The notes under the pieces were generated by a model. It worked only from the letters and a program-made list of their open reading frames with translations, had not been told where the DNA came from and did no database searches. From Marsupella aquatica (lineage: Eukaryota; Plantae; Marchantiophyta), in the NCBI GenBank assembly GCA_973895155.1, contig OZ316895.1, positions 9,536,184-9,600,183 of the forward strand: DNA of 64,000 nt, in the 5' to 3' direction. Positions 766-64,000 of this stretch are shown piece by piece; within the stretch, counting starts at the first letter, position 1; each line of letters begins with the position of its first letter. Both the position numbers and the translations under genes were made by a program.

Positions 766-1191
766 CTTGTGTTTGTCTTGTGTCCCTTGTGTTTGCTCTC
801 TGTCCCTTGTGTTGCTAGGAAGAGGAATGTCCAGCGAATCACAACTAGGAGCAGACATCACTATCATTCCTTACACACCTGAAGATTTAGTCCAAGTGAT
901 CCTTGAAAACATAGAGAAAGAGTCATCACATTGTGTTAGAGATATTGAATTTTGTTTTTTGGTGTGCAGGTTAGGTGAAGAGAAGTTGCTTGCTGGACCA
1001 TTTCGGATTTTGCAGGCAACTGAGAATACAGGGGAGGACGAAACAGTGGTAGAGTCAAAAGAAAAGACTTTTTTTATAGTGAAAACAGTTGACACTTATC
1101 CAACTTATCTTTTTGAACTGAATTCTTGTATTTGCAATACAGATTCACAGAAGCAGTTTCCAGAGTCTAGAAAACTCTGTGCGAAGTTAAC

Positions 1192-2442
1192 ATGGCTTCT
1201 TTAAAGCGAAAAGCAAGACTTTCTGTGCAGGATAAGGAGGAAGCCTCTCTAGTTGACAGTGTTTTTGAATTGAGTATCATTGTGGGATATCTGGGTTCTG
1301 ATGTTCATAAGGATGAAATTCACAAGCTCCATAGTCTCATGCTTGATCATTGTGTGGCAGGTGTGATTGGACTTGAGAGGGGAGAACTGGAGAATCATCT
1401 CCATTTTCAGATGGTTGTGAGAGCCAGAACAAAATCCGCCAGGTCTTTTGGTTTTCTTGTGAGAAAGTATATGGGTTGGCATGGGGTCAAGAATATGAAT
1501 CCTGTTGGTAAAGTTATGTGTAAATGTTTGACTAATAGACAATTACATACTTGGAAAGGAATGATTGGTTATTGTTTGAAAGATTTAGGAGCTACCCATT
1601 TTGAGCAAGCATTGTTTAACATTACTGATGAAGAAGTGATTGCAGGAAAACAGTTACATTCTATTTTTGGCAGAGCAGATCTGAAGTCAAGAGTAACCCT
1701 CACAAACAAGAATGTAGCTGACAGAATGTATGTGTGGCACAAATACAGGTCACAAAGACCTCTGCATGCAACATTCATTTCAACATTAATAGAGATGGTG
1801 AAATCTGGGATCTTTATGCCTGCTGCAAGTTGGACTATTCCTTTAAATGGACAAGGAATGGATAGGAAGAGAATGACTTGTCTTTGGAAATGTATTATTG
1901 ATCCTATCAATGTATGCAAAGCTGATGTTGAAGAAGTTTTTCTTAGAAAAGCTTGGAGTGGTGGTTGTGGCAGATATTATTATGAATCAGCTGATGATGA
2001 TGTACCTGAACTGAGCACAGTGATTGAGGGATCTGCCACAAAGAGTTCTCTCAAGAAGTCCAAGGTGGAATCAAAATCTGTTTGTTTTGATGATATGTTT
2101 GCAGAAATCAAGGTGCCTGAGAAGAGAGTGACATTTGGTGATTCTTTGGGCGAATTTGTATCATTGGCAGACAGACAGCCATTTCCTAACTATAATTATT
2201 TGGAGACTATTGATGCATTGGCTGCAGAGCATTCTTCAGGGTCTAAGAAAGGAAAGGAGAAGATGACAAATACAGACATAATTGTCTTATCTGATGATGA
2301 AGAGATAGAACCTGCACAAGTGTATATTGATGCAGGGAAAAGGAGCAAATTTAAAGGCTGCACAACACTCTTAAGAAAGAGCCTCTTTAAGGTCAAGATT
2401 GAGCCAAGATCCCCTGTAAGTGGATGCAATGGAGATGGCTAA
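1192..2442 (+). CDS. Replitron-like HUH endonuclease (Rep-type transposase), 416 aa
   Basis: Intact ORF with LERGELENHLHFQ (HUH motif II) and GMIGYCLKD (catalytic YxxK). No helicase Walker motifs are visible, and the C-terminus is low complexity. Confidence 0.75.
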   Translation: MASLKRKARLSVQDKEEASLVDSVFELSIIVGYLGSDVHKDEIHKLHSLMLDHCVAGVIGLERGELENHLHFQMVVRARTKSARSFGFLVRKYMGWHGVKNMNPVGKVMCKCLTNRQLHTWKGMIGYCLKDLGATHFEQALFNITDEEVIAGKQLHSIFGRADLKSRVTLTNKNVADRMYVWHKYRSQRPLHATFISTLIEMVKSGIFMPAASWTIPLNGQGMDRKRMTCLWKCIIDPINVCKADVEEVFLRKAWSGGCGRYYYESADDDVPELSTVIEGSATKSSLKKSKVESKSVCFDDMFAEIKVPEKRVTFGDSLGEFVSLADRQPFPNYNYLETIDALAAEHSSGSKKGKEKMTNTDIIVLSDDEEIEPAQVYIDAGKRSKFKGCTTLLRKSLFKVKIEPRSPVSGCNGDG

Positions 2443-4777: not shown

Positions 4778-5621
4778 TTAAATAAACGTATCTATTTTCT
4801 CACGGGGTCCATCAAGTATATGCCTATTGCTTTCATTATTGTAGCATAGCAGAGTTGTGGTCAAGAGCGAGGTTCCCAATTGCTTCTTTTGTGGCAGTGG
4901 ACTACAGTAGTGGTGCTGGAGCCCAACGATCTCCGTGGTCCCCAATCGCTGCCTGCTGTCCTCCACTATGGTTCCTCCTGGCTCGCAGCGATGGGCTCAT
5001 GGGCTCATGGGCTTCTCTCGGCTCATGGGCTTCTCTCGTCCTCAAGACGAGCGGCCAATTGTGCTCAATCCATGCGGGACCAAGGTGATGAGGACCTTCA
5101 GCAGCCACTTAGATGTCAGACAAGGATTCGGTATCGATATCAAAAATCTTGACGGCTTATCCTGATGTGATTGGCAACATTCGCTACCCTGCTGGTCCTC
5201 GGTAGGAATCAACAATGACGGGCTATTCCAGGTCTTGTGACCACTTGGCACCGGCATTTTCGATCTACAGTCGAAGCGACTTTGCCTTTTACCCACCATT
5301 GTTGGTAGTGCAGAATGCAGGGATGTACATTCCTCTAGAAATCACTAAGGAGTAATCTCTATTGAACGACTGCGATCGTTTGATTCCCGCAGTACTTCGG
5401 GGCTGTGCAATCCTAGCTCTCAGTTGTAGTTACTCCTCGTAATTTACCCTGTGATGTCGGAAGTAGTCCGTTGAGAGTGTTGGAGGACCCGCCAGGACGC
5501 GAGATTTGGCAATAAGTAGCTCATTGCGAAGCTGTTCAAGCAGACGTCTTAGTTTCTAGCTAGTTCCACACCTCGCACATCAGTCAGCCACTTCACAACA
5601 ATTTCTTCCTCTGTGGAAGCA

Positions 5622-6737
5622 ATGGCAGCAGCGACCGCACTTGCCTCAACGAGCTTGGCTGGACAGGCCCTTGGCCTGTCTAGCAATGCCCTCGCAGGGA
5701 AGGTCAATGTTGGCGAGGCCCGTGTGTCCATGAAGGCCAAGGCCAAGGCGACCGACAGCATTTGGTTTGCAACGAGTCTCTCCTCACTAGAATTCTGCTG
5801 CTTTTGTCCCGTTTGGCATGCCGAGAAGAGACCGACTAGGATATCAGCCAAGTCCAAATGTCAATCACGCATCAGGAAATCTAGCATAGTGGCGTGGTCA
5901 GTGGAGACTCCGAAGTGATGTGGTCACCATTGAGCACTCGGGTGCCTGACATGATGTCAAATCGAGTCGAGATCTTTGATTATGTAGTCCAGGAATTTTT
6001 CGTGGGATTGACTCGATGGTAGATAGTGGATTGCAGTACAGCTATTCTTTCGTGGAAATTGACTTGACTGTGGATTGCATTTCAGGTATGGTGAGGACCG
6101 TCCCAAGTTCTTGGGCCCCTTCTCCGGAGCTACCCCCTCATACCTCACCGGTGAGTACCCCGGTGACTACGGCTGGGACACCGCTGGACTCTCATCCGAC
6201 CCAGAGACGTTCTCCAAGAACCGGGAGTTGGAGGTGATCCACGCCAGGTGGGCTATGTTGGGAGCTCTCGGATGCGTTACTCCCGAGCTTTTGTCGAAGA
6301 ACGGTGTGAAATTCGGAGAGGCTGTGTGGTTCAAGGCCGGATCCCAGATCTTTAGCGAGGGAGGACTCGACTACTTGGGCAACTCCAGCCTGATCCACGC
6401 TCAGAGCATCCTTGCCATCTGGGCCTGCCAGGTTATCCTCATGGGAGCCATTGAGGGATACAGAGTAGGAGGAGGACCCCTCGGTGAGGTTGAGGACCCC
6501 ATCTACCCCGGAGGAGCATTCGACCCCTTGAACTTGGCTGAGGATCCAGATACCTTCTCTGAGTTGAAGGTGAAGGAGCTCAAGAATGGAAGACTTGCGA
6601 TGTTCTCCATGTTCGGATTCTTCGTTCAGGCCATCGTCACCGGAAAGGGACCCATCGAGAACTTGTCTGACCACTTGGCCGACCCCGTCGCCAACAACGC
6701 CTGGGCTTATGCCACCAGCTTCACCCCAGGATCCTAG
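5622..6737 (+). CDS. Lhcb: Major LHCII chlorophyll a/b-binding protein (Lhcb1/2/LhcbM type); exons 5622-5764 and 6086-6737
   Basis: Transit peptide MAAATALAS..., a GT-AG intron splitting SIW|YGEDRPK, and the motifs [27 protein letters not shown] and [10 protein letters not shown]. Confidence 0.95.
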
Positions 6738-7213: not shown

Positions 7214-8598
7214 TTCAGACACCGCAAGGTGGTAACTGAGAAGTGGTCAATCACGCTCAAGGCAGCCACGTCAGTTTCCAATTTAGATTGCAGAATTCAC
7301 AGTAACGATCTACTGTATATTATAGCGGCAACTAATGATTACCAAATCGGTGATTCAAAATAAATTGCAAGCTTTCACAATTGAGTTCCCCGCACTCTAG
7401 TTTCTTTCATGAGCTTGATGCACTGTCTTTGACTATCCGATCACAGACCAGAGTGTGGAACCAAGTGTTATCCTACGCGGATATTTGGTGTGTTGCGGAT
7501 GTGATTCTGACCAGATAAAATTAGATAGATCTGCTGCAGAATATAGAGATGTTCCTACGTCAGCAAAGGCAAGCGAGGACTGCAAGGACGGCTAGGACGG
7601 CGATGGTTAATCAGTTGTGTGTTGGTTGTTGATGCTGGGGTGAGTTCTGTCACTTCGCTCGAAAGTATTCAAAGGGCTGACCACTATACAGAGTCTGCAT
7701 ATTACATATATTGATGATGGAGCCGAAGGATGTCAACAATGTGATGTATATAACAAAAACTGGTTCGTGAGAGACTGTACAATGGGCGTTAACCTTTTAA
7801 TTCTAAGCAAAAACGCAACATGGGTTCCTTCGCTGTGTCTACTTATCCTGATGTGTGTTCGATTTTGACATGCCGTCTTGGCTTTCGTACCTGCGTTGAT
7901 TGACGACAGTCGGTAAGCATGTTAATGAGCTCCTCTATTGTATACCGCGGTTCTGGGTTCAGGACTTCATAAATGCAAGACAATTGAAAACCTGATCTAG
8001 CCTTCACTTTAATTTGTTAACTTGTGCAAATATGCTCAATTTAGTGAATATTCGGGTAGCAATTCTTCATCCGATGAATCTAGCAGAGACTGGCTGCAGG
8101 CAGGTGACTTCAGTTGCTCAACGAATGGCAATTTCTGCTTAGGTAAGGGGAGAATACAATGTATACATATCAGCTGGCCCAACATCATTCGCGGCTTTTC
8201 TGACAACAGCGTTACGCACAACCAGATTTTCTGAAACTTTGGCTCCAATGTATAGCCTGCAAGTTCTCTTGATTCTCCCCTGCTGATCGGTGGAGGAAAA
8301 ACATGATGTCAAAACGCGTCATTCTGTATTATTTAGGAAAGGTGGTAGATGTGGTGCATCGAAGTGTACGCTAGAAGATAACAAGCCGTTCGCGATATTG
8401 GGTCAAGGTGACCACGTCAGACAATGTTGTCACGGAAATTGGCCTCATTCTCATAATCAGATGTTTGATTGTTTGAAGAAATGGTATCATTTCCTTTCTC
8501 TCTAGTCGATATCCCTTCCAGCCATTCATCGCCCATCTCATTTCGAGGACCCCCATCCACCGCACCACACCACACAAGCCCACACAAGCCCATCAGCC

Positions 8599-9135
8599 AT
8601 GCCCCACATAGGCTTGCCGCCGAACCAACCGGGTATGGTGGCCCTAGGTTCCTACCGCCCAGATGTGTACACCCGCCTGGCCTCGCTGGCCGACCTCCTG
8701 CTGCAGCAGCAGCAGCAGCCATCCAGCACGCTCTCGCCCGGCGACCGCGTCAACCGCTGCGACTACTGCCATCTGATCCACGGCGCCGTAGCCGCTGCGC
8801 ACTTGCACGACACAAAGCTCGTTGACGATGTGAAATGTAATCTCGACAGCAGCGCCGCAACGCCGAAGATGAAGAAGCTTTTGGGAATCGCGTGCATGGT
8901 GCAGAGGAGCGGCAGGGACGTCACGGCCGAGGCGGTGGAGAGTGCGAAGATGGATGTTCATGATACGGTGTTGATTGCGGCGACGTTTTGTATGTTTAAT
9001 CGCTATGTCGATGGTTTAGCCACGGAGATGCCCGGCGATGTGGGCGCTTTCTTGCAGAGGGGGCCGATGATTGCGCAGGTGGGCTATCAGGCGTTGGGAA
9101 AAAGATCGGAGAACGTAGGGGATGAAGCCATGTAA
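8599..9135 (+). CDS. AhpD/carboxymuconolactone decarboxylase-family peroxidase-related protein (bacterial type), possibly degenerate
   Basis: Intronless GC-rich ORF with MPHIxLP, NRCDYCHLIHG (CxxC...H) and VHDTVLIAATFCMFNRYVDGLAT. Confidence 0.75.
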   Translation: MPHIGLPPNQPGMVALGSYRPDVYTRLASLADLLLQQQQQPSSTLSPGDRVNRCDYCHLIHGAVAAAHLHDTKLVDDVKCNLDSSAATPKMKKLLGIACMVQRSGRDVTAEAVESAKMDVHDTVLIAATFCMFNRYVDGLATEMPGDVGAFLQRGPMIAQVGYQALGKRSENVGDEAM

Positions 9136-10374: not shown

Positions 10375-13300
10375 TCAAGCAAAAAGATTAATCCCCCAGA
10401 ATTTCTGCGGGTTGTTGGTTCTTGCTCCTCTCTCGACTCCTTTCAATGCCTGCATGTCTTCCTTACTTAACTCGAAGTCAAAAACATCAATATTCTCCTT
10501 AAGCCTTTCCACTTTGCTGGATTTGGGAATGACCACAATGTTCCGCTGAATACCCCATCGGAGTGCTATCTGGGCAGGAGTTTTTTTATATTTCGAGGCA
10601 AGCTCCTGCACACAAAATAATGCCGTACCCCTTCAGCACAGACATTTTCTCTAATGACTGAAATCGCTGTACAAATTCAAGTTCAAATTGGTACTAGTTT
10701 GGAATCGAAGATACATAGTCCTTCAACAAGAAAGTAAAGTCTGACATATAATTGTGAATGCTTGAATGTCAGCAGTCCCCACGTTGAGAGAAGCTGATTC
10801 TAGTTTATGTGGCAAGGAAAACTAATAGTTGGAAGAATAAACGGACAGACAAAAGTTCAGAAATGATCACGGTGAAAGCTTGAAAGCTCATGCAAAGCGA
10901 GTAACACAGTCAGCATGCAATCACTTCCAGCCAAAGAGAAGAGCTTCAAATAGACACATTAGTTGAGACCGCCAGCATTATCAGAACACCGAAAGACAAT
11001 CTCTTGAACCCGCTTTAGTCACATGTCTATATGAACTTCCAAGGTCTCTTCCTTCAAAACATAAGTTTGATGACGAACCTTTATGACGGGGTCGTCCAAG
11101 GCAGAGACAGAACCAAACCATTCTGTGTTCGCAGCACCACCTCCAAGAGGAGTATGAGCAGTGATCGTAATCCCATGTTTTTGATTGAACTTCACCAAAG
11201 ACTCTCTTTGAAAGTAAGGATGTGTCTCAATTTGGTTTACAGCAGGCTTGATCTTCGAATAGGCGAGAGCATCCCGCGTCAGAAATATGTCATAGTTGCT
11301 GGAACATTCACCACAAGCTATTACCATACTGATTTTAAGGTGCAACAAATCAAAAGAATCGAAAAGCAAACGATGGCACAATGCAAATGTCGAATCCATC
11401 AATAGTCCTATTTTTGTGGGACTTTTGCTGAGAGAAGAGCGGAAGCTCAAGGACAAAGGTCCAAAACCCAGTTCAAAATGAATCCTTGTCCTCAAAGGGT
11501 TTGTGAGATGCATCAACATACAAATGAGATAAATTGTCTGCTAGATAATCACAAGGCACCACAAGAGAGCATCCTTGCGGAGCTCTATGTTATAGCACGT
11601 AGCGTGAAGCACAAGTCCATGAAAAGATTAAGTTTGGACGATAAAGATACGCAAATACTAAGTCGAGACAGGAGTAACAGGAGTCGGCAGTAAAATCTCT
11701 ACCTGATGCCAATGCTGCGGACAAGCCCAGAAGCGACTAGATCCTCCATAGAATGCCAAACAGTCTCCAAAGATACTGTCACATCGATGTCCAGCACGCC
11801 ATCTTCGTCCAGTGCACTAGCTGTTGTGCCCACTCCTGCAACACCGATCCTTTTTTAGTCTAACGTCCACTATGAACTACCCGGAGTAAGCCTTAGCAAC
11901 GGAGCTCAATTTAGCGCCTGGAGGTCAACTAAGAATCTCTGGCCAAAGAAATCGAAAGTACTGGAATTGCAACTGTAGTATATGCAAATCGAAGCGAGCA
12001 ATAACACTTGTCCCCAAGAAATGGCAAGGACTCTTACAGCACCAACCGACGAAAGAATATCTAACGGACCTGTATGTTTGGTAGACACTGGGAAATGCAC
12101 CAAATAAAGGTCCAAGTATTCTAGCTGGAGGTTTTTCAAGCTGCAAACCGCTGCCTCCCGAACATGCTTATGATCTGAATTCCACAGCTGTCATTATCCA
12201 TGTGCAACGAAGTACTGAGTTGGTATTCCGAAATCTGAATGTAAAGCAAATGTACGGAGCGCATCGACAGACTTTGTGGAAACTTAATATCTGATCTAAA
12301 AATTGGCCCTAAGTCCATGTAGATATGAAAACTTTGCTCTACACAGGTCTCTAGGGAAACCTCTGTCCTGTGAACCCTCTAGTGCTAGTAAGTTTTTAGC
12401 ATGTGGAGAAAAGTAGCTGAGCGTACAAGCCTACAGAAAGTAAATGCAGAGGAGAAAACCTTGGTAGTAATGAAGAGGTCCTCCCGCTTCGCCAGGCCTT
12501 TAGCTATGCCTTCCGCTAATGCAGCTCCAACCTCTTTCTCATTCAGATAATCAGCTGCGACCCACGACTGTGTGAATAATCATCCTTCACAGTGTCCCAC
12601 TTTCGTCCTTTTATGGTTGAAAACACTAACTGAATTGGATAAATTTATGACCACTACTAGTCCAAATCAGGACATAGATAGCAAATATAGAAAAGTTGAC
12701 TCACTATCCCTTACAGAACATTTAACAATATGTCACAATAAAATAACATAAAATAAAATAAAATAAAGCTTTCCAAACCATGGCCAACGATACTATTCAC
12801 CGAAAAATTTCCAACACTCACAAAGTTGCGGTAACAGCCGCAGAAATGTAATGCATTTGACAGTGTACATGAGAGACTCTCAGCAGGCCAGAAACCTCTC
12901 TCATCAACAAGTAATCCATGCAATAAACTCATGAAGGTCCTTCCTTAATCTCACGCGGGTGATGCACGTCCAAGCAATCATCATCATCGTTGAATCACTA
13001 GAGTAAAAGCTGTCGCACCAGCACAATAATCCCTCTAATGAATTGACTAACTCCACCAAGGGTATTGATTCTCAAAGCCCACCATTGTTATGTAAAACAT
13101 ACTGCTCATGAAACCTAGTCCTCTGGTCCACTCATCTGTCGCTATTGAGTCTTGGCAGTAATTGTACATTGTTGCTCCCCACCAATGACGTCCCCATGAA
13201 CTTTACCTTCAATTTTCTCAGAACACAAGCATGCAGAGGACACTGCTTAGACCACGGATGACAGGGCGTCTTTACATATATTGCAGCTCATTGGCAACCA

Positions 13301-37907: not shown

Positions 37908-38563
37908 CGGCCAGAAGGGCCCAACCTCCATGACAGGAAACAGGAAACAGTGATGATCATAACAGGAAAAATAGTTGAACAAAACAGGAGAATTGGTATT
38001 ATCATTGAGAAAAAATGGCTTAATTTTGGACCCAACCAAAGAGGTCAAATTCAACATCAACTCAAAAAGATGGGGAAAATGACAATTATCGAAAGATGCC
38101 TTTACTAGCGCTTAGTCCTAACCAAGCGTTTGATACCGTTACAAAATATCATTAACAAAATACTCGCTCACCATCTACCGGAATGATCAGAGGATAACGG
38201 TTTCTAAGGCAAGAAAAGGTCATCCTCAAGAATGCATGCAAAAGAAATCCACACGTTCAGACCTAGAAACTACAAACTGAAACCAAGTAAGGAAATGAAG
38301 TCTAGCGCCGGGCGCTAACAAAATTGAAGTCCAAGTGACGATTGAATACAAAGAAATCTCCGTTACCCGTACAATGAAATTTACACATCCAAAAAACTGT
38401 AAAAACAAATTAAGTTTTTTGTGCAACCCACAAAAGATTGAGCCATGTTGAAAAGCAACCAAATGTTGTTTACTAGCGCTGGACGCTAACCAAAACAAAG
38501 TTACCGTTACGAAACGACAAGTCGTACATACCCGTTGAACGTAAACTAGAATACTAAGCCTTC

Positions 38564-41500
38564 CTATAAACCATCAGCATTCTGCCTCGCTAGAATATAA
38601 CGCAGTTCCGCAATGGTAAGAATCGGTTGGCTTGGGAGGATATTGTCCACAAGATCAAGCTTGCAGATAACTTTGTAAACCCAGTACAAGTGTTTACATG
38701 GCATGAAAGGTTTCCCTCGAGAATGTCGACGAAAGAAATCTTCACAAGAGCAACAAGGGAAAATGCAAATCTGCACCCAGTAAGTATTTGCAGTTCGTAA
38801 ATGTGCATGTGTGCGTATCTGGAATCGTTTCCCGTATGAGTTTCCCGATGAAACTTCCATAGTTTTGATCAAAGTCATTATTTCTTTCGTTGCTGATTCA
38901 ATCCTTTTATGATATTCTTGAGTGAGATTTGATCTGGAGCTCATCGCACGCCCGTTTCTCGTTCAAAAATGGATGTTGACTTATGCAAGATCGATCTTTT
39001 CAGGGAAAACGTCAATGTTGATTCTCAGTTCAAATGGAGAAGGACAACGTGAAATAACACCTCCTCTCGAGACTTCAATGCCCTGCTCGTGAAGGAAATT
39101 CAACTCCAGACTTGAAAGATGAGTGCCTTTCTGTACTGGCAAAAAGTCTGGGCAAGTAGGGAGGTTCACAATACCTCGACAAGGGCGGCTCTTCCAGCAA
39201 TCACGAGTGGGGCAGAACCAGACAAGCTCTAGATGGTGTTCACCTCTGAATAAGCGGTAACCTTTGACGACTATTCCGACAACCCCTGCATTTGAAGGAT
39301 ATCCGACCTTCTTAATTTGATTACGACACTCATCTCGATCACAACTTCCAGACAACGTCCCATTACACTGTGGTCCAGCACCGTGTCTGGAAACTCTCCG
39401 CAAATGCCACGACCCGGGTACAGCGTCCACTTCAAAAAGCAAAGTGTCTACAGGAATGAATGGAGTGGTGTTCGGAGCACTTTTTGGAACTTCGAAAGAT
39501 TGAGTGACATGATGGGAAACTGGAGAGCCACTTTCAGACAAATCGATAACTGGATTTGAAGGAGGAGTTCTAAGTATCGGAATGTGCTCAAACTCGGCTG
39601 AGGTCAAATTTCTCCTCTTGCAACCTCGGGTGTTTGGCGTAGTTATGAGAACCGTGTCATGTCGATGGGAGTCTTGTGGAGAGACATTCCCGGTCGTCGG
39701 ACCTTTTCTTTTCATAGACTTCGTCACAAAATCCCCATTCAACGGAGAATCCCTCTCCAAATCAAATTCTGCTGCATTTGCAAGTAACATATTAGAGGCT
39801 TCTTCGAAGAGTTTCGGGGACCCTGCCTGGTCAGCCAAAGGAAAAGCCAATTCAAACACTGTTGGATCGGTACCCCGATGGAGCCCTTCACGATATGCTG
39901 TATAGGCTGCTATTTGTGAGATTGCTCTGTTGTGATCGGTCTTACATCCTTCGAACAAACCAAATGTTTTCTTTCCCTGCCATGCTTTCATGATTCCGTG
40001 AACAGCTTCAGAACCAGTGCAACTGGGAATCATCCCCCCTTCAAGTGCACTTTTTCTCTGAAAAAGAGTTTTGTCAAATTCAGTAAAATATATCGAATAA
40101 AAAAGAGGAACTTTAAAATGGGCGGACAAAAGGTATGAATGTTTTCATGATCATTGTGAAGATTGAAGAAGCTATCAAGCTATTCGTACGTTAGCGCCCG
40201 GCGCTGGCAAAAACATCAGTAAATATCACAATTAGAAAAGGGATATTAATACTAGCGCCAGGCGCTAGTATACATTGACTCACCAAACGTATGAAATTTC
40301 CCCACTGTCGCCACCTCACAACCCACCAAGTGATCCATCCTTGCAACATTCTAAGTTTCCCAGGAATACAATTTCTAGATCTCCACCATGAATCAATCTC
40401 TCGTGAAACCCTGTAGGCTTCCACAAATGAAGCGGCATTCCGCAACTTGTCCCAAAGGATTCTATGTTCAACACGTTTCTCTTCAAGTACTCCTTCGATA
40501 GAGTGACGATGCAAAGACTGATAAAAGTGGAATGCATCCGATCGCTCTCTCTCCGGGTTTGGATGGCCGTCAAAGAAGACATTCCTAACCGCTACCATCC
40601 CGCCTGAGCGTTATCCGCCATGAAACCATGGATTTCCACACCGTTTAAACCGTTCTCCAAAGCGACTTTGATCATCAACCTCCAAGCTTTCTCAAGCGAT
40701 GCAATGTCCTCTGCTTTGAGTTCACAAGTAAATATTGTGCACAAAGCTCGATAGTTATGGTCATACACATGTGCACTAAAAGTACTCCATTCTTTCGACA
40801 TCCTTTTCATCACGTCAAAGCTCACCCATGCTCCTTCTAGAGGCCCCCCTTTCTTCATCTGACGCAGTAAATCTACTCCCGATCCATGACCTTTGATAGT
40901 CATTTTGAAAATATGCGCTCTATCACCTTTACAGCCCTGCCCAGGAAGAAGATATCTTTGGAGAAAAGGAAACGTAACATTATTCTGCATGCGAACCAGA
41001 TATTCCAAATCACCTCGACCAACCTGATCTTTGCGAACGCTCTTAAATAACGCAGAAAACTTCTGAGGCGTTGAAACGAGCATAAGTGATTTCCAGATTT
41101 CTGATTCTTCTAGCTTTGAAATGTCATCCACAGACTCACCTACGACATCCATTAAAGATCCAGTGATCTCATTTTTCAAAACGCACGGTGTAGAAGAAGG
41201 AGACTTCTTATGTTGTCTCCGTATTTCTTCTATTGCTATTTTCTCAGCACTTCTAGACTAGACCTTCCGACATGGATGGTTGTGCACTCCCATATGGATT
41301 GCAAGTCGTGACATGTGTTTTGCAGTGTCATTTTTGATCAAAACTTGCGGGTACATATAAAACATTTTTGCTGGACAAGACTCAACACAAAATGGAACTT
41401 GAAGGCAATAGCGACAAACAATTCCTCCAGCATCGATAAAACTCCCAGGACAATGCTGACCAGAGAGCTTGGGGGTCCCATCCCATCCATTACAGTTTCT

Positions 41501-42313
41501 GACTTGAGTCCTGGTGTAAAACTCACATGCTCTATTTCGGCATTCGAGAGAACCACTACAACTTACTTTCCCAAACTCCCACATCTTCTTCGGAACGACA
41601 TTAGCAGAAGTAGGAAGGATTCTAGTCCAAAGGTAGCAGTCCTTGCATCAATCCATGTTTCGCAGACGATCCCCTTTCGAGCCAACACCTTGAACAGGTG
41701 GAAGCTCAGATATGGTATTCCCATTGTACTCGACAGGTAAGCATTCAACTTGTTTGTGAATGAATGCCTCGGACCTAACAAAGCGCGCTAACTCACTTTG
41801 TCCAGTTGACTTCAACAAGGCATCAAGTGCGCTTCTTCTGTACACAACCAGAACAGGACGAGTTAGAGTGTCTCCATCATCAGACTCCTCCGACGGAATC
41901 AATACGGGGGGTACCTGGGGCGTCAACAAACTGGTACTTCCGCCCTCCTTATTGACCTCACCGCCCTTTGAGATTGGTGGAGAACCCTCAGAGCATTCAG
42001 CGTTGGACGTAAGGTCAATCACATCGTGAGTGACCTGGTGCCTCTCCACCTTGACATGAACAATGTCCCTGAGTTGAATGAAAATCAAGTACTCCACGCC
42101 ATATTCGAGATTCCAAACAACGTCCTCCGCTTTAGTATCAAAATGAGAGGGCCCATCGTTCAAAGTTCTGATACTCAAAATATGTTTTCTCGTCACCCCA
42201 AATCTTCCACACAGGTAATTATCACTAACACGTTTCTTGGTTTCGGAAATCGACACAGGGATCGTCACAACGTCACCTATATTCGGACATGTTATTCCAA
42301 TAATGCGAGACAT
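38564..42313 (-). pseudogene. MULE-type DDE transposase with an N-terminal Cys/His (GCM/WRKY-like) region and a C-terminal SWIM finger
   Basis: VSFDVMKR, GFMADNAQ, FHFYQSL and SWIM CSC...CKH. It has in-frame stops, one frameshift at ~40595, and an intron at ~40283-40058. Confidence 0.8.
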
Positions 42314-43687
42314 TCTAGCTCCCCAAAGATAACCGACTACATAAAATAAAGATACATGGTAAAATGAAGCTAGATTGTATGGTTGAGGGTTTCTTCTAAA
42401 TCCAAGTCTCAAACGGAAAGAGCCGTCGAGCGGTTATAGGATCCGTTGGGTACGGATTTTCTTACCGTTCAAGAAACGACAAAACCATCAATTCGGCTAC
42501 TGTTGAATTAATGGTTTTGACGTTGTAACCAACGGGGTAATATAGTAGCGCCAGGCGCTAGCATTGTCCACATCTGAAATAGCCCAAAAAATGAACAACA
42601 AAAGCAAAGATCATCGACCATTTTGGTTACTGACACAGGTTAACATCCTACGACAGGTTTCGGGTTTCCTTGGAAATATATTGGGTTTCCTTGGAAATAC
42701 CCCCTTATTTATGTCAGATGACAATATTACCCAGGTCTGCTAATATTAAAATTGATCCATTTGAGATCGAGTACAAGCTATCATAATAATAGCGCCAGGC
42801 GCTATCATAAAAGTCATAAAATTGTCAAGATGTACTCGTACATTATTTATTGAAACTTACACATTTTGTGTCCAAACATCTACCATTTTGAGGTGTCTCG
42901 TTACTAGCGTCGGGCGCTATTATTGAAATCTACACATTTGAGCCCTATTTGATACTAAAAGAAAAATAGCGCCTGGGACTTTCATAAACTTTATAGAAAT
43001 AGAATCCGTTTATTACAAAATCTTTCACGCTTCAGTCCATTCATTCGCGTGATTTTTTAGTACAATGTTACTAGCGCCAGGCGCTATTATTAAAATCCTT
43101 CATTTTAAGATATATTTTAGTCTAGCATAATAATAGCGCCAGGCGCTAATATTAGATCGAAGTAGAATACTGACATAAACGGTCTTTTTAAACGGTAACT
43201 TTGACCGTTTATCGTTACAATTTATAATGAATTCTTGGATAAATATATTTATGAGTATCTATAAACTAGTTAAAATGTGACAAGTGTCAACCTTTAGTAG
43301 GTCTGATTTTGGATGCTCGTGCTTTTCGATGTGTACTTGTGATACATGTCGGTCTGCCAGAGGGTATATCAGATAAGATATTTTCGCGATAGTGTCTTCC
43401 TTGATCGTTAGAACGAAACCTGCGCACGTTTAGGATCGTTGTCAATCATTCGTCCATATCGGTACAGCACCACAAGAAACGTTGCATCACGCAAGAAGCA
43501 CGTTGCGGTGCGGGTTCCCCGTGTGTATGCATCTTAAACAAACATGGAGAATCATTCTCCTGGCCATTCTGAAACATCTGAGTCCTCATTCTCCGGATCA
43601 GTTTATACTCGAAGAGTCACTCGTTCGTCTGCATCGAACTCTTTGTGAAACATTAGTCAGGCGATTCCAAAGCCAAAAAGAGGCATC

Positions 43688-46600
43688 ATGGAGTCTTACG
43701 GAGATTTTGCAATGGAGGACGGGGGCGAGGGAGTCCTGTCCATGGATGCTGTGATCGAGAAATACGCAATGTCGTTTGGAGTCGATTTTAGAGGGGAGAA
43801 GAAAGAGCCGCCGCGTATCCCTCTTTGTCGGCTTGTTCACATGGAAATCGTTCAGACTTTACAGAAAAATAGTGCATCTATCGATAAGCTCAAGGATTCA
43901 TTTCGGAGCTCTGGGTACAACTCTTCAATTGGGATGCGGTTTTACGTCCAGCCCACGGATTCAGAAGGAGTCATTCAATTCTGCACGCCTGAAATTCGGG
44001 AGACCTGGGATGCTGTTTGGGTTGCCCAGAACGACTTGTTTGAAGCAGAATGTGCTATTGATCCAGATTTCCACATTCTGAAGGATAAGATGTTCTATGT
44101 TTTTGACGGGAATCATCGACTCTACTCATGGACCCAAGTAACAAATGAGAATCCAGACAATATCAAGTACCATCCGCGTGTTCAATGCACTGTTTTTAAG
44201 GGAGATCGAGGTTCTCTAGTTGAGCTTGAAGCGGCTATGCACACGGTGAACCAGTAAGTATTCCTCAAGTTGCATAAACGCTATTGAATTTGGTCGATTG
44301 CGCTTGATTTTTGAAAGGTTAGTTAGCGCCAGGCGCTAATATTTGCCATTATATCTTACAGGTTAGGGCAAGTTGTGGTGGAACCATCGTGGATTCTTGA
44401 TGCCGATAGAATCAATAGGATTTTAACTCATGACTTGGAGGCCTACAAGCCGATCATCGACCCCGGAAGCTTCAAGCGATTTCAAACTGTTCGTGCCAAA
44501 ACAAGAAAGGGGTCTTGGTATACCAAGCAGATGCCATTGGAAGCATTGGTATACATCTTGTGTGAAAACAAGATTAAGTCATATTCACTTCAATTTAAGC
44601 TTGACTTGGCTGCTGCGGCAAGTCAAGGTCGCCCGTGGTCATCTGAAGAGACTGGTAAGCGGTATCCTGCCATGATGAAGGAGGCAACGAAGGAGTGGAG
44701 CATAAAGACATCCAAGATTACCCCCCTGATAAGCCCAGAGTTTGGTGATTTTCTGTCAACTTGTGCAGAAATGTACATTCTTACGGAGAGGAACAAACGA
44801 GAAAAGAAGTCGGACTCTGTAGTATGTACAATGGACCGCGCGCGTCTATTCACTGCTGTCTCCTACTTGGATCCACAACTGCGCTGTACTCTTCTTGTCG
44901 CTCACTGTACACCCGAGCTCAGAAAACAATTTTACCATCCCCCGAGTGTGAATGATGACCCTGTTAAATAGTGGTGTCATACATGGCACATGTGGAGTTT
45001 GGTGGAAGGAATTGCAATTGCAATGTTACAGACATCTCTTTCGCAAGTCCAGTCGATCCTACCTGCTGATCGTCTAACGCTAGGAGGAGTGGAGACGTTT
45101 GAAGCATTGGTCTTGAACATCACCAATGATTTCAAGACATACGGTGAAACAATGAAGGCAAAGTTTTTTAGCACAATTTGGCAGTCCAAGTACGGAGACA
45201 AGGAAGACTATACCATTCGCAACCAGAAGCGAGCCAAGAGATATCTGTATCGCTTCTACATGGCGATGGAGACCAGTTCTCCAGAGTATTTTTGGGCTTA
45301 CCCTCCTGCATTCCAGAAATGGTCCGTTCTAGAGGGGGATGCTTCTAGCGAAGTTTACTCAATGTACCCTGCCGAAGGGGACGTTACACCACGTGAAATT
45401 TCATTGTGGGAGATAACCCACTGTCCATGGTATCTTGACATAGATAAGTGGGACACCCCTTTCGATGAAGCTGAAAAGGATGCATTTCTGAAATTATCAA
45501 AGTCTTTAGTGCCTCGGAAAGTTCTCTCTGAAATGAAACAAGGTTTATCGGAAGATGTAGATGCCTCGGCGAGCGAGCTGTAGAAACATTGCAAAACAGA
45601 AGTTTTGCATGTAGACAGGAGTCAAAAACCCCGGGCGAAAGCAAAAGTAGACACTGGAGTAACTAGCCCATCAACGAGATCCGGGAAGAAACGTGAGATT
45701 CTTCTATTTTTCATTGGCATTCAGTAATTTCCCTTCACTAGTTTGGATATTTAGGTTACTTTTTGTTTAGCGCCACATATGTTGGTGTCCCTTTATTGCT
45801 TGATTTTGTGTAGTTTGGTTAGCGCCCGGCGCTGGTGTTATTTTCCATTGGCATTCTGTATTTTTTTGATGAGCGCTGCAGATCAAGTTGTCTATTTGGT
45901 TAGCACCCGGAAGGGCAATTTGGTTAGCGCCCGACGCTGGTGTTATGTGGACCGTAATCTTGGAAACTTTTGTATCTTTTTCTAGGTGGACGGAAATTGG
46001 ATGGAGAAGAAACACAAGATGCAAAGACGACTGTCACTCCTGGAGTCTCTGAAGCTGATACGGGGGAACAAGATGTTCCTGATGAACAGACTCCTCCCAA
46101 CACGGAGAAGATGGTGCGACCTGCAGATGCCACCAGCACAAAGAAAAAGAAAAAGAAATCTTCGGATCATGGATTTTCCTCTCGGGATTCGGTCGCTTCC
46201 ACTGGTGTTCAACGAGATGTTGGACAGTTCAAGTCTAAGACTTCTAGGCATGTTTTTGTTGAGTCCAGCGTAATGGACTTCTTTGAGAGTGTGTTCACGA
46301 AAGAGCAGAAACCGGCTTGGGTGTCAAATGTGGAGAAGTGGGTGAAAGACCTAGTCTTGCTTGGTCTAAGGGAGAAAGGAGTCATAAGAGGAGGAAAGAT
46401 AAGATCATTTGGAGTTGATGCTGGATTCGTTTACCTCCCAACTGGACTGCGTCCATCCCTTTTAGAGAAGAAGTCTCCAAAATGGAATTCCCCAGATCAC
46501 AAAATTGTTGGTTCATTCTTTCGCGCAATGGACCCCTTTCTAGCAGATGATGGTATATTGGCCATTTTGCATACTGGCGAGTATGATCAGATCTCGCAGG

Positions 46601-47475
46601 TCATTGCCGCGAGCTAGGAGTCTCAAAAGTTTCAGTGTGTGAAAACCCTAAACGTGGTTATGGGAGTTCCAATGTACATGGCCCGAAGTGATTGCCAGGT
46701 AAATTCTCTCACTCTTCGTGCTGTCCTTTGTTAGCGCCTAGCGCTAGCTAAAAATGTTTTCATTTACCCTTCGGTTAAGGGGATATTCTTTGTTAGCGCC
46801 TGGCGCTATCCAAAATTCATTGTTATGCCATGAGTTAAATGATTTTCTGGTTGGATCGTCGGCATCTTAACAATGGACTTTGTTGGGATTTCACAGGTTT
46901 TCACATTGAGATTGGATCTGTTCAGTCGTGTTTCGTCAAAGGTTAAGGTTCCAAAGGACCCCAAGTTTTGACCCCTCTCTGCAATTGAAGATCCTTCTAT
47001 CACTAACCTTATTGGTCTCCCGAGTGTGAGGAAGGATCCAACTCCTTCAGCAGCGTTTGCTGGCAATGGACGCTTGTCCGTTGGGTTCATGCAATCTGTG
47101 TTAGAGTTAATCACTCGGCCGGGTGACATTGTCATGGACTGGACTGTGGGTTCGGGAAGTACATTTGTTGCTGGTGACTATTGTGGTCGTTTTACTCTTG
47201 GTATAGAAAACCGAAAAGAGTTTGTTGAGATTGCGGAAAAGACATGGATGGATTTATTGATTCCAAAGGATGTCAGTTCCTCATCTCCCGCTAAAGATGT
47301 GGGAAGAAAACAAAAAGATAAAGTTCGCTCTGTCTTAAATTTTGACTCTGAAGATGAAGAGGATGGAGATGCTGTTGGAGATGATGCTTCAGGAGGACAA
47401 GGAGAGGAAAACAACGGAGATGAGAAGGAGAGGCATACGACGGAAGAAACAGAAGATTTGGATTCTTCTGAGTAA
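43688..47475 (+). pseudogene. Spliced accessory gene: ParB/Srx-like N-terminal domain plus C-terminal N4C/N6A DNA methyltransferase-like domain
   Basis: VFDGNHRL at ~44105 and LELITRPGDIVMDWTVGSGSTFVAG...GIE at ~47100-47210. Introns at 44254-44361, ~45693-45986 and ~46699-46896. Several in-frame TAG/TGA stops. Confidence 0.7.
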
Positions 47476-48326
47476 TGCCCGTAAGCTACTTCACTTTACA
47501 TTATTGATTCTGTTACTATCCCATTTTCATTTTCAATTCTAATATGGTTCCATTCCTCTTCCAGATCGGAGTGGAATCTTCAAGAACGTTTTAATCTTTG
47601 GAGGAAATCCTCGAGAAAAGTTCTCGTTTCTCCTCAGAAGCCTTTCGTGTTGCCATCGTATGCAGAATATGCTGCCCGTAAAGAAGAACAGAGGAGAACA
47701 CTTACTTGGGAGAGTAAGGGCTTAAGGTTAAGAAGAGGTTTAGATAGGAAATTCATCCATCAGCCTTTACTCAATGATGGACCTAGAAGCGAATTTATAG
47801 ATGATGAAGCTGAGTCGACGGATAGGTCTAGCAATAGCGAGTCCAAGTCTTCTAACTTGGAATAGGTTGAATGGGAATTTCTAAGGTTTTCTTTGGAACC
47901 TTGTACTAGCGCCCGGCGCTATTAAACAGGGTGTTCGGATCTGAGACTTTAAATGAGTTAGACGCACCGGGAGTCTCTTTCCTGAGTGCATATTTGTGCA
48001 GATATCAGAAATGCATGTACTCGTACAGTTGTACGGTGAATAATTATACCTTCAGTCTGTACGTATTTTCGTTTTTGGTTGATATGATCGTTTGGACTCT
48101 CTCAAAGTGTAGTGTTTGTTCAACTTCGGGATTGTTCAACTTCGAGTTTGTTCAACCCTAAACGCATTTCTCCCTTTCATTTCTGTGAGGCGCCGACTCA
48201 CCTCTTCCCTTCATTTCGTTTGTGCACTGCCCAGACTCACCTCTTCCCTTCGTTTCATTTCTGGTCTGCCCGGACTCACCTCTTCTCTTCTCCCTGAGTT
48301 TTGCATCCGTTGTTTTCATCAACTGA

Positions 48327-48797
48327 ATGGATAAGGGAAAGCAAATAGCAAAATCGGAGAGCTGCAATCCGCCAAAGGCGATGGTTTGGAGGTCGATTAG
48401 AGATCCGGGTTTAGATTTGACTCCATCTTTTACGCAGTGCCCAGAGACGTCGACCGAGAGGAACAAGTTGTGGCTGGCCACGGATGAGGGTATTAGCCAC
48501 AGAACTGGACACCTTCCATCGCGTGATCCTTCGCCTCCACTTCCTTTTCGAGAGAGGTTCTCTGTTCACGACCCTGATCCTTCCAATGTGTATCGGGTGG
48601 AAAGGACATCTTTTTTCAGAGACATCCAAGCAGACACCGGACGTGTGAGCTTTTCAGATTCGAACATCCTGAACGACCGGAGTCGGAGTCGCTATCCCGG
48701 ACCTCGTTTTTTTCTGGATCGAGAGGATGGGTTTCGACAGGATGAGGATAGGTTCAAAGTTGGGTTGGACGACGACTGCATGTTTTCTACTTCCTAG
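48327..48797 (+). CDS. Possible small third ORF of the MULE (156 aa, unknown function)
   Basis: ATG-initiated open frame between two palindrome copies, with no recognisable motif. Confidence 0.3.
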   Translation: MDKGKQIAKSESCNPPKAMVWRSIRDPGLDLTPSFTQCPETSTERNKLWLATDEGISHRTGHLPSRDPSPPLPFRERFSVHDPDPSNVYRVERTSFFRDIQADTGRVSFSDSNILNDRSRSRYPGPRFFLDREDGFRQDEDRFKVGLDDDCMFSTS

Positions 48798-49667
48798 AGA
48801 GTGTGGATTTCTTCTCGACACTAGCGCCTGGCGCTAGCTTTCATCTCATCGTTGGAGTCGTTCATGAGTTTGATTCATGTCATCTTTTTGAATGGGGGCT
48901 CCGGTTTGGCCGAGTTAGCTTTATTGCTCCTTCCATTTTATTATCGCATTAGGTTTTTTGAGTATGTTATTAGGGTTATTTCTTTTTCTCGAAGGTTATG
49001 GACTTTTATTACCTTCTGGATATCAATGTAATTTCTTTTTCAAGTAGCGCGTGTCGCTAGCGCCTGGCGCTACTATTATATGTTCTATTCTCCTCCACAA
49101 TTATGTAAACCCGCCTCTATAAAATTGTTTCTTTCATCTCTCTTTTTTCTAGTGTCCTCCAAATATGCTGCAAATACTATTCGTGGCTCTTTTATTGTTG
49201 AAATTGGTTGTTTCCTTTTACTGGAATCGGGTTCCTGTCAGATGGAAATCCCTGTGACAAAACGATCTTTAAGCTTGATCTGATGTATTCGGTCTTACCG
49301 AGCCAGCCAATTGTGAATGTCGGAGAACTCCAATTCATCTTAGGAAGGGAGAATCTGCATGGTTTATAGGAATTTTGATCATTCGACGATACATTGAACG
49401 GACATTTTGTTAATGTTGTTTTGAACGGCAACAAACTCTTGGTTAGCGCTCGGCGCTAGTAAAACTTGTCTTTCCATAATTGCTGTACAGAACTCTAAAC
49501 ATATTGGAGTTCCTATTGAAATTGGCCTCCTTTTTTGTCCAAAATTATGTCATCTTTTGTGTATGCTAGTACCAAATCTCCTGTTTTGTTCCTCTCTTTT
49601 TCCTGTTATGATTGTTACTGTTTTCTGTTTCCTGTTTCCTGTCACGGGGAAAAACCTCTGGCCAGAA

Positions 49668-62879: not shown

Positions 62880-64000
62880 TGTGGTGCGTCCCACGGCTCC
62901 CTAAACCCAAGAAACCCCCCAGCTCAAGCCGATTCCCGCAGGTTTCGCGCTTGGCAAGGCCGTTTCCGCGGCTTAGCGGCATGGGACGCTGCTAACCTTC
63001 TACTATTACTATTAACATTTTACACACATATACTGGACAGATCCTTCATCGGATCATGAGATACGTAGCCGGCCTAATCTAGGCCTTCCCCTGTCTTCCC
63101 CTCCGTCTTGTTAGGTATGTTTGGATTCCGCCGCCGGAATGATCCCCAATAGGCTTGGTTAAGCCGCTAAGACCTCTCTCAGCTCGACACATCCAACTCT
63201 CACTCCCCTGCTTACTTTCCTTCCTTATTGGTTGATGTGGGCACTCTTCACACAAGTTAATGCGACACACAAATAGCAAAATGACTCATTCTGACTGAGT
63301 CATACCATGCACTTGCCATACAAACAGTACATCTCATACACAAGTTCTGCGAACTAAGCCGTGAGGCCAACTCTATTCAGCTCTTAGGCATGAGGAAACA
63401 TGAATATACACAAGGGTCACTGTATGACTAACCGAGAGCTTCTCGTACTACTTGATCCCAGCCCGGCTGGTGCAAACTAAAAACTTGCTAAAGAAGAGGC
63501 CCTGAGCTCCCCGCTGCCCAGGTACTTATCCTGGTAGTGGATCCGCCATTCTTTGCATCGTAAGCCTAATCTACCTAACAGTAATCTACTTGCCCGAATC
63601 TACCTATGTACAGCAAGGCAGGAGCACAAGTGTTGCTCCTACCAGTGGAACCGCAATCCCACTAAGCTAAGTGTCAGGGCCGCTCCTGGTCCTGATCCTA
63701 ATCCTAAACTTGGAGATCAGCGCCCGCCCTGCCCACTCACGCCTCCTCCCTCCACATCCGCCCTCCCTAAAAGGAACGGCGCCCCTGCACCGTCACGACA
63801 CCGGTGGTGGATCCTTAATGGACGCCCCCAACGCTTCCTCCTCAGCCACTGCCGTAGGCTCATTCCCTGACAGATTACCTGCCCTTGACTGAGTCAATTC
63901 TCCCTCGGCCTGACTGGGTCCACCATCGGCGTCGGCATCGGCTTGGGAATCGGTTACGGCCTCAGCCTCGGCTACGGTCTCCCCGGCCTGCTCAAGAGGC
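62880..64000 (-). mobile_element. Third, more diverged copy of the giant LTR (3' end), running off the window
   Basis: Reverse complement of ~24600-25689, ending CGCACCACA. It is not followed by the PBS, so it is a 3' or solo LTR. Confidence 0.9.

Follow-up and report, generated by a model that had tools for sequence, protein, structure and literature searches.

Sequence-specific anti-silencing by plant transposons has been proven in few systems, for example VANC and the TnpA regulators. What, then, does a liverwort transposon do with a gene that joins a ParB-like domain to a DNA methyltransferase? This question is raised by a 64,000-nucleotide stretch of the Marsupella aquatica genome (assembly GCA_973895155.1, contig OZ316895.1, positions 9,536,184 to 9,600,183 of the forward strand), called the window here and numbered from its first letter. 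The window holds an 11,742-bp DNA transposon (37917-49658), the limits of which are set by a target-site duplication (TSD) and terminal inverted repeats (TIRs), and in which a transposase-like gene lies head-to-head with an accessory gene of five exons and 1161 codons (43688-47865, + strand). This copy is dead, with both genes broken. We see an even chance that it is a decayed member of a two-gene cut-and-paste family of land plants, whose accessory protein would be a ParB-type clamp that targets its own element and whose methylase module is mostly non-catalytic. Such a family would be an anti-silencing candidate unrelated to the proven ones and derived from bacteria, for which the protein and both cognate and non-cognate palindromes can be identified.

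The first-pass annotation of this locus, made from the letters alone, had read the motif DGNHRL near the N-terminus as a ParB/sulfiredoxin signature, and structural comparison agrees with the ParB side of that proposal. The model of a Riccia homologue, P0155, was built from a 90-row alignment and has a predicted local distance difference test score mostly above 90 over residues 10-585. It matches the ParB CTPase domains 7bm8 (Z 8.5, root-mean-square deviation [rmsd] 2.4, 99 aligned) and 7bnk (Z 8.5), further ParB domains (Z 8.4, and 8.2 for 6sdk), and Noc (Z 7.8). KorB heads the ranking of 48,161 chains (Z 7.4); its alignment takes in 196 of 201 residues in sequential order, extends through the helical core and has an rmsd of 15. 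Model residues 27-390 run in order with ParB 44-237 (6t1f, 188 aligned, rmsd 6.0) and with KorB 52-252 (rmsd 15), which suggests a helix-turn-helix domain in the modelled helical core. Plant sulfiredoxin was rejected as the identity of this part, scoring Z 5.6 against 7.4-8.5 for ParB-type chains. In addition, DGNHR occurs in 61 of 78 motif matches (183 proteins), G, N, H and R are each at least 90% conserved in a 56-row alignment, and the Box II arginine of GxxR, as that motif is defined in PMC12704722, is present. The PHROG match to a ParB-like profile is weak (E 0.025), and the upper Foldseek rows include Noc, ParB, beta-class methylases and phage ParB proteins, all at E>0.001. The Z scores are modest, yet fold, GxxR motif and domain order of the model concur and point to a ParB-like N-terminus. 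Atlas neighbours of 43688-44251 are fungal DUF3723 clusters (PF12520 in 31-47% of members), with a eukaryotic cluster at 0.95 and the rank-24 cluster, which has PF02195 in 11%, at 0.92. Eukaryotic clusters near this segment also include cnidarian members; the DUF3723 and cnidarian clusters together suggest a single wide eukaryotic ParB-like accessory family.

Is the gene carried by a family of elements, or was it picked up by this copy? Passive capture of a host or bacterial gene, as in a Pack-MULE, would suit a dead copy, and many relatives have no transposase nearby. The N-terminal half, however, finds 300 clusters at E<=1e-3 and 136 at 1e-10 among 1.84 billion representatives. Of ten long matches that were looked up, nine are hypothetical proteins of Riccia sorocarpa, with genes on several large contigs, and ten further matches include one each from Adiantum capillus-veneris and Calypogeia fissa; the named homologues come from two liverworts and one fern. 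The spliced window protein aligns end-to-end with Riccia P0153 (1099 columns, 25.7%, E 3.5e-80), and 26 of the 27 homologues of the methylase domain are from Riccia. UniRef auto-names many Riccia methylase-like pieces (P0151, P0153, P0154 and others) 'Trimethylguanosine synthase', probably a misannotation. Contigs from four runs (460, 751, 904 and 1212 aligned; <90 to >99% identity) span all 30 bins. Furthermore, a metagenome scan confirmed 174 stretches, from which 80 loci were retained, reducing to 50 clusters. The methylase catalytic half, searched with an iterated profile seeded partly from the 80 loci, is present in 31 of these loci, in 17 of the 50 clusters and in 16 of the 22 clusters having at least 3 kb downstream, invariably downstream of the ParB-like part and on the same strand. 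The divergent link to the transposase, first noticed in this copy, recurs in at least 7 of the 20 clusters with at least 4 kb upstream (including L061, L013 and L015), and also in the L070/71/76 cluster; an open reading frame (ORF) upstream of ParB in L006 is transposase-like by eye only (E 0.5) and was excluded from the count. This head-to-head layout is retained at 26-50% identity. Four young related copies (L005-L008, 141 codons) give ratios of nonsynonymous to synonymous substitution (dN/dS) of 0.04-0.11 in all six pairs. No TIR pairs were assignable in 10 long loci. Prokaryotic genomes yielded 5 matches and viral contigs 47 pattern matches, none confirmed as a relative; phage and plasmid searches gave only weak methylase matches (E 3e-3 to 4e-3) and one match at E 4, and no donor, and word-index searches using exon 1 and exon 4 found nothing. 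The 300 clusters, the hundreds of contigs from diverged copies, the low dN/dS (about 0.07) and the repeated layout therefore identify the gene as family cargo, as had been proposed at first pass; with no close prokaryotic relative found either, capture by this copy is largely refuted and scarcely credible.

What could such a protein bind? A 15-bp palindrome, TAGCGCCNGGCGCTA, newly noticed here and absent from the first-pass annotation, occurs in 19 copies within the element (at most 2 mismatches) against 0.05 expected, and in none in the other 52 kb of the window. Of these, the transposase intron holds two copies and accessory introns 1-3 hold five, with intron 4 free of them; the stretch that separates the two genes (42546-43148) has another five, and the remaining seven lie toward the ends; coding DNA, which makes up 57% of the element, holds zero. 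The centre of the palindrome contains CCNGG and GCGC. TAGCGCCNGGCGCTA is absent from all 50 locus representatives. L006 has 17 copies of GTGCC-N6-GGCAC (shuffle maximum 1), mostly upstream with two after an exon, L017 has 6 copies of TTCGGCGCCGAA (shuffle maximum 0), and there is hardly any cross-presence among the three palindromes. Older loci contain a decayed ACTTTCGGCGCCGAAAGT type (L036, L054, L061, L071 and others) or a CAAGCT-NN-AGCTTG type (L043, L052, L077). The four palindrome labels, placed on a ParB tree of 35 rows, cluster jointly with 4 changes, a count equally low in 2 of 200 shuffles, a pattern that describes but does not prove a possible co-evolution of palindrome and ParB-like protein. 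At 1756-3958 of L006, 15 palindromes lie upstream of the ParB-like gene, many in tandem units of about 138 bp; this tandem spacing resembles the tandem-repeat evolution of VANC targets. The window, L006 and L017 palindromes have in common a GYGCC half-site, with spacings of 1 nt, 6 nt and overlapping (n=3).

Does the C-terminal half still methylate DNA? The beta-class amino-methyltransferase layout claimed at first pass was recovered: exon 4 matches PF01555 positions 167-221 (E 1.7e-8, 35.1 bits against a cut-off of 26.7), the best PDB sequence matches are DpnA-named chains, CcrM and MboIIA, and the family profile aligns CcrM 56-111 and then 214-258 in beta-class order, with the catalytic half N-terminal to the half that binds S-adenosylmethionine (SAM). 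Eukaryotic N4CMT chains reach E 0.17-0.18 against this profile, beneath CcrM and the DpnA-named chains. The methylase domain in the P0155 model is partial and of low confidence. Motif IV reads YLPT in the window and D[LMI]P[ST] in Riccia, whereas beta-class enzymes carry [DNSH]PP[YFW]; Tyr stands where Asp is expected. No variant at >=3% occurs at 46429-46441 among 21, 39, 27 and 32 contigs of the four runs, and third positions neighbouring the V-Y-L-P codons do vary in contigs over 46385-46505. Invariant codons beside variable third positions therefore make the Tyr a family trait, and decay private to this copy was rejected as its cause. Among 22 proteins the motif is DLPS in 10, DLPT in 4, DMPT in 4, DMPS in 2, DIPT in 1 and YLPT in 1, so that 21 have D[LMI]P[ST] and none has the aromatic residue required for target-base stacking (PMC4738411). 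Ten locus clusters read DIPW, DVP-stop, DIPE, NVPG, DVPR, DVHG, DILG, NVPS, YVPS and NILR, old copies in which part of the changes may be decay; one retains the aromatic (L036, DIPW) and L032 has DVP-stop(TAG). SPPY is absent from every motif IV examined in these 22 proteins and 10 clusters; MpDN4MT1, by comparison, has TSPPY. Motif I is likewise altered from DPFxGSG, reading DWTVGSG, DFAGGWG or DWNASTG. The early suspicion of a catalytically dead domain, raised by YLPT, is borne out as a degenerate motif fixed in the family, and the methylase half is probably non-catalytic in this family, judging from its motifs.

It is quite unlikely that the protein is instead an active amino-methyltransferase which, guided by its ParB-like part, marks its own element with N4-methylcytosine (4mC) or N6-methyladenine (6mA), blocking or masking host 5-methylcytosine. 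The beta-class order, a SAM half over the Pfam cut-off, an Asp or Asn that opens motif IV in 21 of 22 proteins and in 9 of 10 locus clusters, the L036 and L032 motifs, a palindrome centre with CCNGG and GCGC, and the 4mC writers known in Marchantia and bdelloids would all suit such an enzyme, but Tyr is fixed at the catalytic position in the window's family, the aromatic survives in 0 of 22 proteins and 1 of 10 clusters, motif I is altered, and motif IV varies freely (DIPE, NVPG, DVPR, YVPS) against a near-invariant DGNHR. In some sister lineages, methylase activity may persist. Near-intact genes are available in a sequenced liverwort, and the YLPT, DLPT and DIPW variants pose the question of whether the methylase is dying or repurposed; lineages with D-x-P-W, if truly active, would represent transposon-written amino-methylation in land plants.

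How, then, would a clamp serve its element? We reason by analogy at every functional step, from binding, nucleoside triphosphate and spreading to silencing relief and methylation. Bacterial ParB dimers are described as loading at 16-bp palindromes and spreading over 10-20 kb, by which VirB counters silencing (PMC10770331), and VANC21 as binding a motif that occurs in introns, between genes and at the ends of its Mutator-like element, from which methylation is removed (PMC5735166). On the pattern of ParB/parS, KorB and VirB, a dimer of the accessory protein would recognise the element's palindrome through the helical domain and bind a nucleoside triphosphate through its GxxR motif (DGNHR); the clamp would close, and once closed would spread across the ~12-kb element. 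On the pattern of VANC/VANDAL, the outcome would be family-specific relief from silencing, with the element kept accessible. The methylase half would, in this lineage, transfer no methyl group and could serve as a SAM-, DNA- or dimer-binding module. We regard as doubtful the bolder version, in which a complete bacterial-type ParB/parS module, a sliding clamp gated by nucleoside triphosphate and loading at palindromes specific to its family, operates in plant chromatin as a spreading anti-silencer and D-x-P-W lineages still mark their own DNA with 4mC or 6mA. If true, the action of a ParB clamp on nucleosomal DNA would be biochemically new, and it might yield a tool for spreading ~10 kb outward from a short site.

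The distribution of the palindromes also bears on two other roles. In the first, clamp spreading or bridging, or a transposase seated on the palindromes, would pair the element's ends or recruit the transposase. This is unlikely: although palindromes do lie close to both ends (38303, 38474, 49045, 49058, 49444), the TIRs are imperfect (68%), maize MURA interacts with MURB (PMC12973397) and AtMu1 is bound and activated by its own transposase (10.64898/2026.08.24.746577), most palindromes lie in the interior (introns hold 7 of the 19, intergenic DNA 5), a better fit to coverage of the whole element, and synapsis needs no methylase fold. In the second, the protein would be a KorB-like autorepressor that holds down expression of the transposase from the divergent promoter region common to both genes. 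Five palindromes are grouped between the genes, and KorB, the top match of the wide search, is described as mediating long-range silencing and repression (PMC11790492). This role is nevertheless very unlikely, as palindromes are also found in introns and at the 3' end, distant from promoters, and likeness of fold is unable to tell a repressor from an antisilencer.

A number of observations weigh against the self-targeting clamp. The structural model is that of P0155 and not of the window protein, its Z scores of 7-8.5 are close to the level that the tool terms common, Foldseek gives it no match at E<=0.001, and the alignment over the DNA-binding domain has an rmsd of 6-15. PF02195 matches 0 of 56 family members (DndB, 2 of 56 at E 0.066), and the ParB profile has 0 matches among PDB sequences. 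KorB, the top structural match, is a repressor, and 17 of 28 purified ParB-fold proteins are described as binding no nucleoside triphosphate in vitro (PMC12704722). One TAGCGCCNGGCGCTA copy sits in the right TIR, and the palindrome as a candidate site could serve the transposase instead of the ParB-like protein. Most of the 50 locus clusters have no clear palindrome, and neither palindrome type A nor type B forms a single clade on the ParB tree, with 4 and 2 changes respectively, counts no higher in 154 and 105 of 500 shuffles. The methylase half is missing from 6 of the 22 clusters with at least 3 kb downstream, the SAM-binding half appears in just 1 of 17 clusters searched (L009), and up to 13 of 20 clusters have no detectable upstream transposase. 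The missing methylase or transposase parts are attributed to the age of these copies, which are interrupted by retroelements (shared repeats).

Is the architecture new? The novelty implied by the first-pass annotation is too high, as the architecture is in print for algae and this is a land-plant variant. The Ectocarpus element Sola1-1_Ec32 is described as having a 1104-aa ParB-like and N4/N6-methylase accessory gene opposite its transposase, and like proteins in green and red algae are cited there (PMC12477816). Compared by description, the two accessory genes are alike in lying on the strand opposite to the transposase, in length (1104 vs 1161 aa) and in joining ParB-like and methyltransferase parts, and the Sola1-1_Ec32 protein, too, has been suggested to act on its own element by binding and modifying it. 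That element belongs to a brown alga and to the Sola superfamily, whereas ours is a Mutator-like element of a land plant; the description of Sola1-1_Ec32 is silent on catalytic motif and palindromes. Iyer et al. 2011 is reportedly a source for similar green-algal proteins. Accessory genes of the ParB and PF01555 kinds, along with arrays of inverted repeats, are described for Bostrychia Plavaka and Chondrus Mutator elements (10.1101/2025.02.11.637652). The PAG2/PAG3 genes are similar in their ParB-like protein (best match 7BNR, among the top matches here too), their PF01555 methylase and the proposal that inverted-repeat arrays are ParB sites. They are described, however, as separate genes (ParB with a 2-oxoglutarate oxygenase; methylase with SET) and are fused here, and their arrays lie in tandem beside PAG3, whereas our repeats are dispersed through introns and ends.

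VANC/VANDAL of Arabidopsis likewise combines a Mutator-like element, an accessory gene and a family-specific non-coding motif (PMC5735166). VANC motifs are described as 9-bp, non-palindromic and same-oriented whereas those of the window are 15-bp and palindromic, and anti-silencing, demonstrated for VANC, is here proposed by analogy. VANC is not known to have a ParB or methylase domain. ParB/parS, Noc, KorB and VirB, as described, resemble the family in the N-terminal fold, GxxR, a helical domain that follows and palindromic sites of 14-20 bp; they differ in having GxRR where GNHR stands here, in lacking the large insertions of this spliced, eukaryotic gene, and in a dimerisation domain that the C-terminal methylase fold replaces here. 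CcrM, M.MboIIA and M.BceJIV, and the eukaryotic N4CMT and MpDN4MT1, also place the catalytic half before the SAM half, and the best PDB matches are all beta-class. ParB-N6_N4 fusions are described as enriched in phages (PMC12704722), and transposons with other epigenetic enzymes as known (PMC12730594, PMC5890265, 10.64898/2026.05.21.726589). A literature search, with subscription journals and Repbase outside it, found no land-plant report of such an accessory gene.

Where does the gene end? The first-pass model, a spliced gene divergent from the transposase, stands except for its end: position 47475 was rejected because an in-frame fifth exon matches homologue C-termini, giving five exons rather than four. 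The TAA at 47473-47475 most likely falls inside a fourth GT-AG intron (47472-47564), across which exon 5 stays in frame; the match of exon 5 is weak but in frame (24 columns, hhalign probability 73, E 3e-5). The other introns, also GT-AG, are at 44254-44361, 45693-45985 and 46699-46896. The exons are predicted, with splicing supported by copy comparison, frame and splice signals: diverged copies (80-95% alike) stop aligning at the intron 1 and 3 donors (ends or joints at 44259 and 46706), and many homologous ORFs terminate precisely where intron 1 begins. All motifs quoted at first pass (DGNHRL, FVYLPTG, FLADDG and GIE) lie in place, and the premature stops it mentioned number four (Table 1). 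The stop at 45581 reads C in other copies among contigs of the four runs.

To which superfamily does the element belong? The transposase reading frame is interrupted by stops at 41648 and 41258 and by a frameshift near 40592, and an intron likely starts at 40283. Its Cys/His-rich region extends to HNHPC and is followed by SFDVMK, FMADNAQ, DAFH, GSEAVH and a C-terminal CxC-x15-CxH (SWIM-like); candidate D residues lie in the 40822 and 40624 regions, and the candidate E in GSEAVH. We take this series to be the Mutator D, D, C/DxxH, E and SWIM pattern. Homologues of the transposase are present in L012, L021, L076 and L077, and no Pfam, NCBIfam or PDB match was obtained for the window or locus pieces. 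The TSD (9 bp with one C>T, within the 9-11 bp of such elements) and the long TIRs (about 280 bp) agree with an assignment to Mutator-like elements; the transposase matched no profile, and the basis of membership consists of these two features and the motifs seen by eye. The two termini, located where a TSD- and TIR-bounded element had been claimed, are 68% identical across 280 nt, with a best arm of 99 nt at 84%, and G is the first base at either end. The transposon sits in the pol gene of a Ty3/gypsy element, with integrase to the left and reverse transcriptase/RNase H to the right. This host element (19048-54976) has long direct repeats ~34.4 kb apart, 92-95% alike, with nested insertions within; one of these is a 99% duplication spaced 10.85 kb (21065/31915), which recurs inverted near 62880-63972. 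Inside the transposon, a 156-aa ORF with an ATG start (48327-48797, + strand) follows three 39-bp repeats at 48170-48290; it has no Pfam match and no counterpart in the 80 metagenome loci, and is possibly a third gene or a product of chance.

Table 1. Positions of the element, its genes, motifs and palindromes in the window.
Feature	Position	Strand	Remarks
Left target-site duplication CGGCCAGAA	37908-37916		9 bp
Left imperfect terminal inverted repeat	37917-38190	+	about 280 bp
Broken transposase-like gene	38567-42313	-	Cys/His-rich N-terminal region, motifs by eye
Exon 1	43688-44253	+	ParB/sulfiredoxin-fold nucleotide-binding domain (PRIPLCRL, DGNHRL, AMHTVN)
Motif DGNHRL	44105-44122	+	
Exon 2	44362-45692	+	all-helical core; stops 44969, 45581
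Exon 3	45986-46698	+	low-complexity linker with basic run, then methyltransferase catalytic half; stop 46615
Motif FVYLPTG	46426-46446	+	motif IV equivalent YLPT 46432-46443
Motif FLADDG	46537-46554	+	
Exon 4	46897-47471	+	SAM-binding half (PF01555 positions 167-221), acidic tail; stop 46969
Motif TRPGD	47113-47127	+	
Motif DWTVGSGS	47137-47160	+	
Motif GIENR	47200-47214	+	
Exon 5 (probable)	47565-47865	+	conserved LPxYA motif, true stop
Right imperfect terminal inverted repeat	49376-49658	-	
Right target-site duplication TGGCCAGAA	49659-49667		9 bp, C>T once vs left copy
TAGCGCCNGGCGCTA starts (38303-49458), first ten	38303, 38474, 40192, 40253, 42546, 42790, 42905, 43072, 43134, 44324		
TAGCGCCNGGCGCTA starts, last nine	45820, 45925, 46732, 46794, 47907, 48822, 49045, 49058, 49444		

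Elsewhere in the window, an open 423-aa frame at 1171-2442 (+ strand) matches the Replitron HUH endonuclease (PF21859, E 1.1e-16) and its C-terminal domain, and looks like a Replitron with intact Rep. A 209-aa frame at 8506-9135 (+ strand) has a CxxCxxxH motif and a ATFCMFNRYVDGL stretch, with no Pfam match at 1e-3; presumably it resembles a peroxidase-related AhpD-like protein, a likeness that Pfam did not confirm. Host genes are present too, namely a chlorophyll a/b-binding protein gene at 5553-6737 (+ strand, PF00504) and an aldo/keto reductase exon at 11019-11540 (- strand, PF00248).

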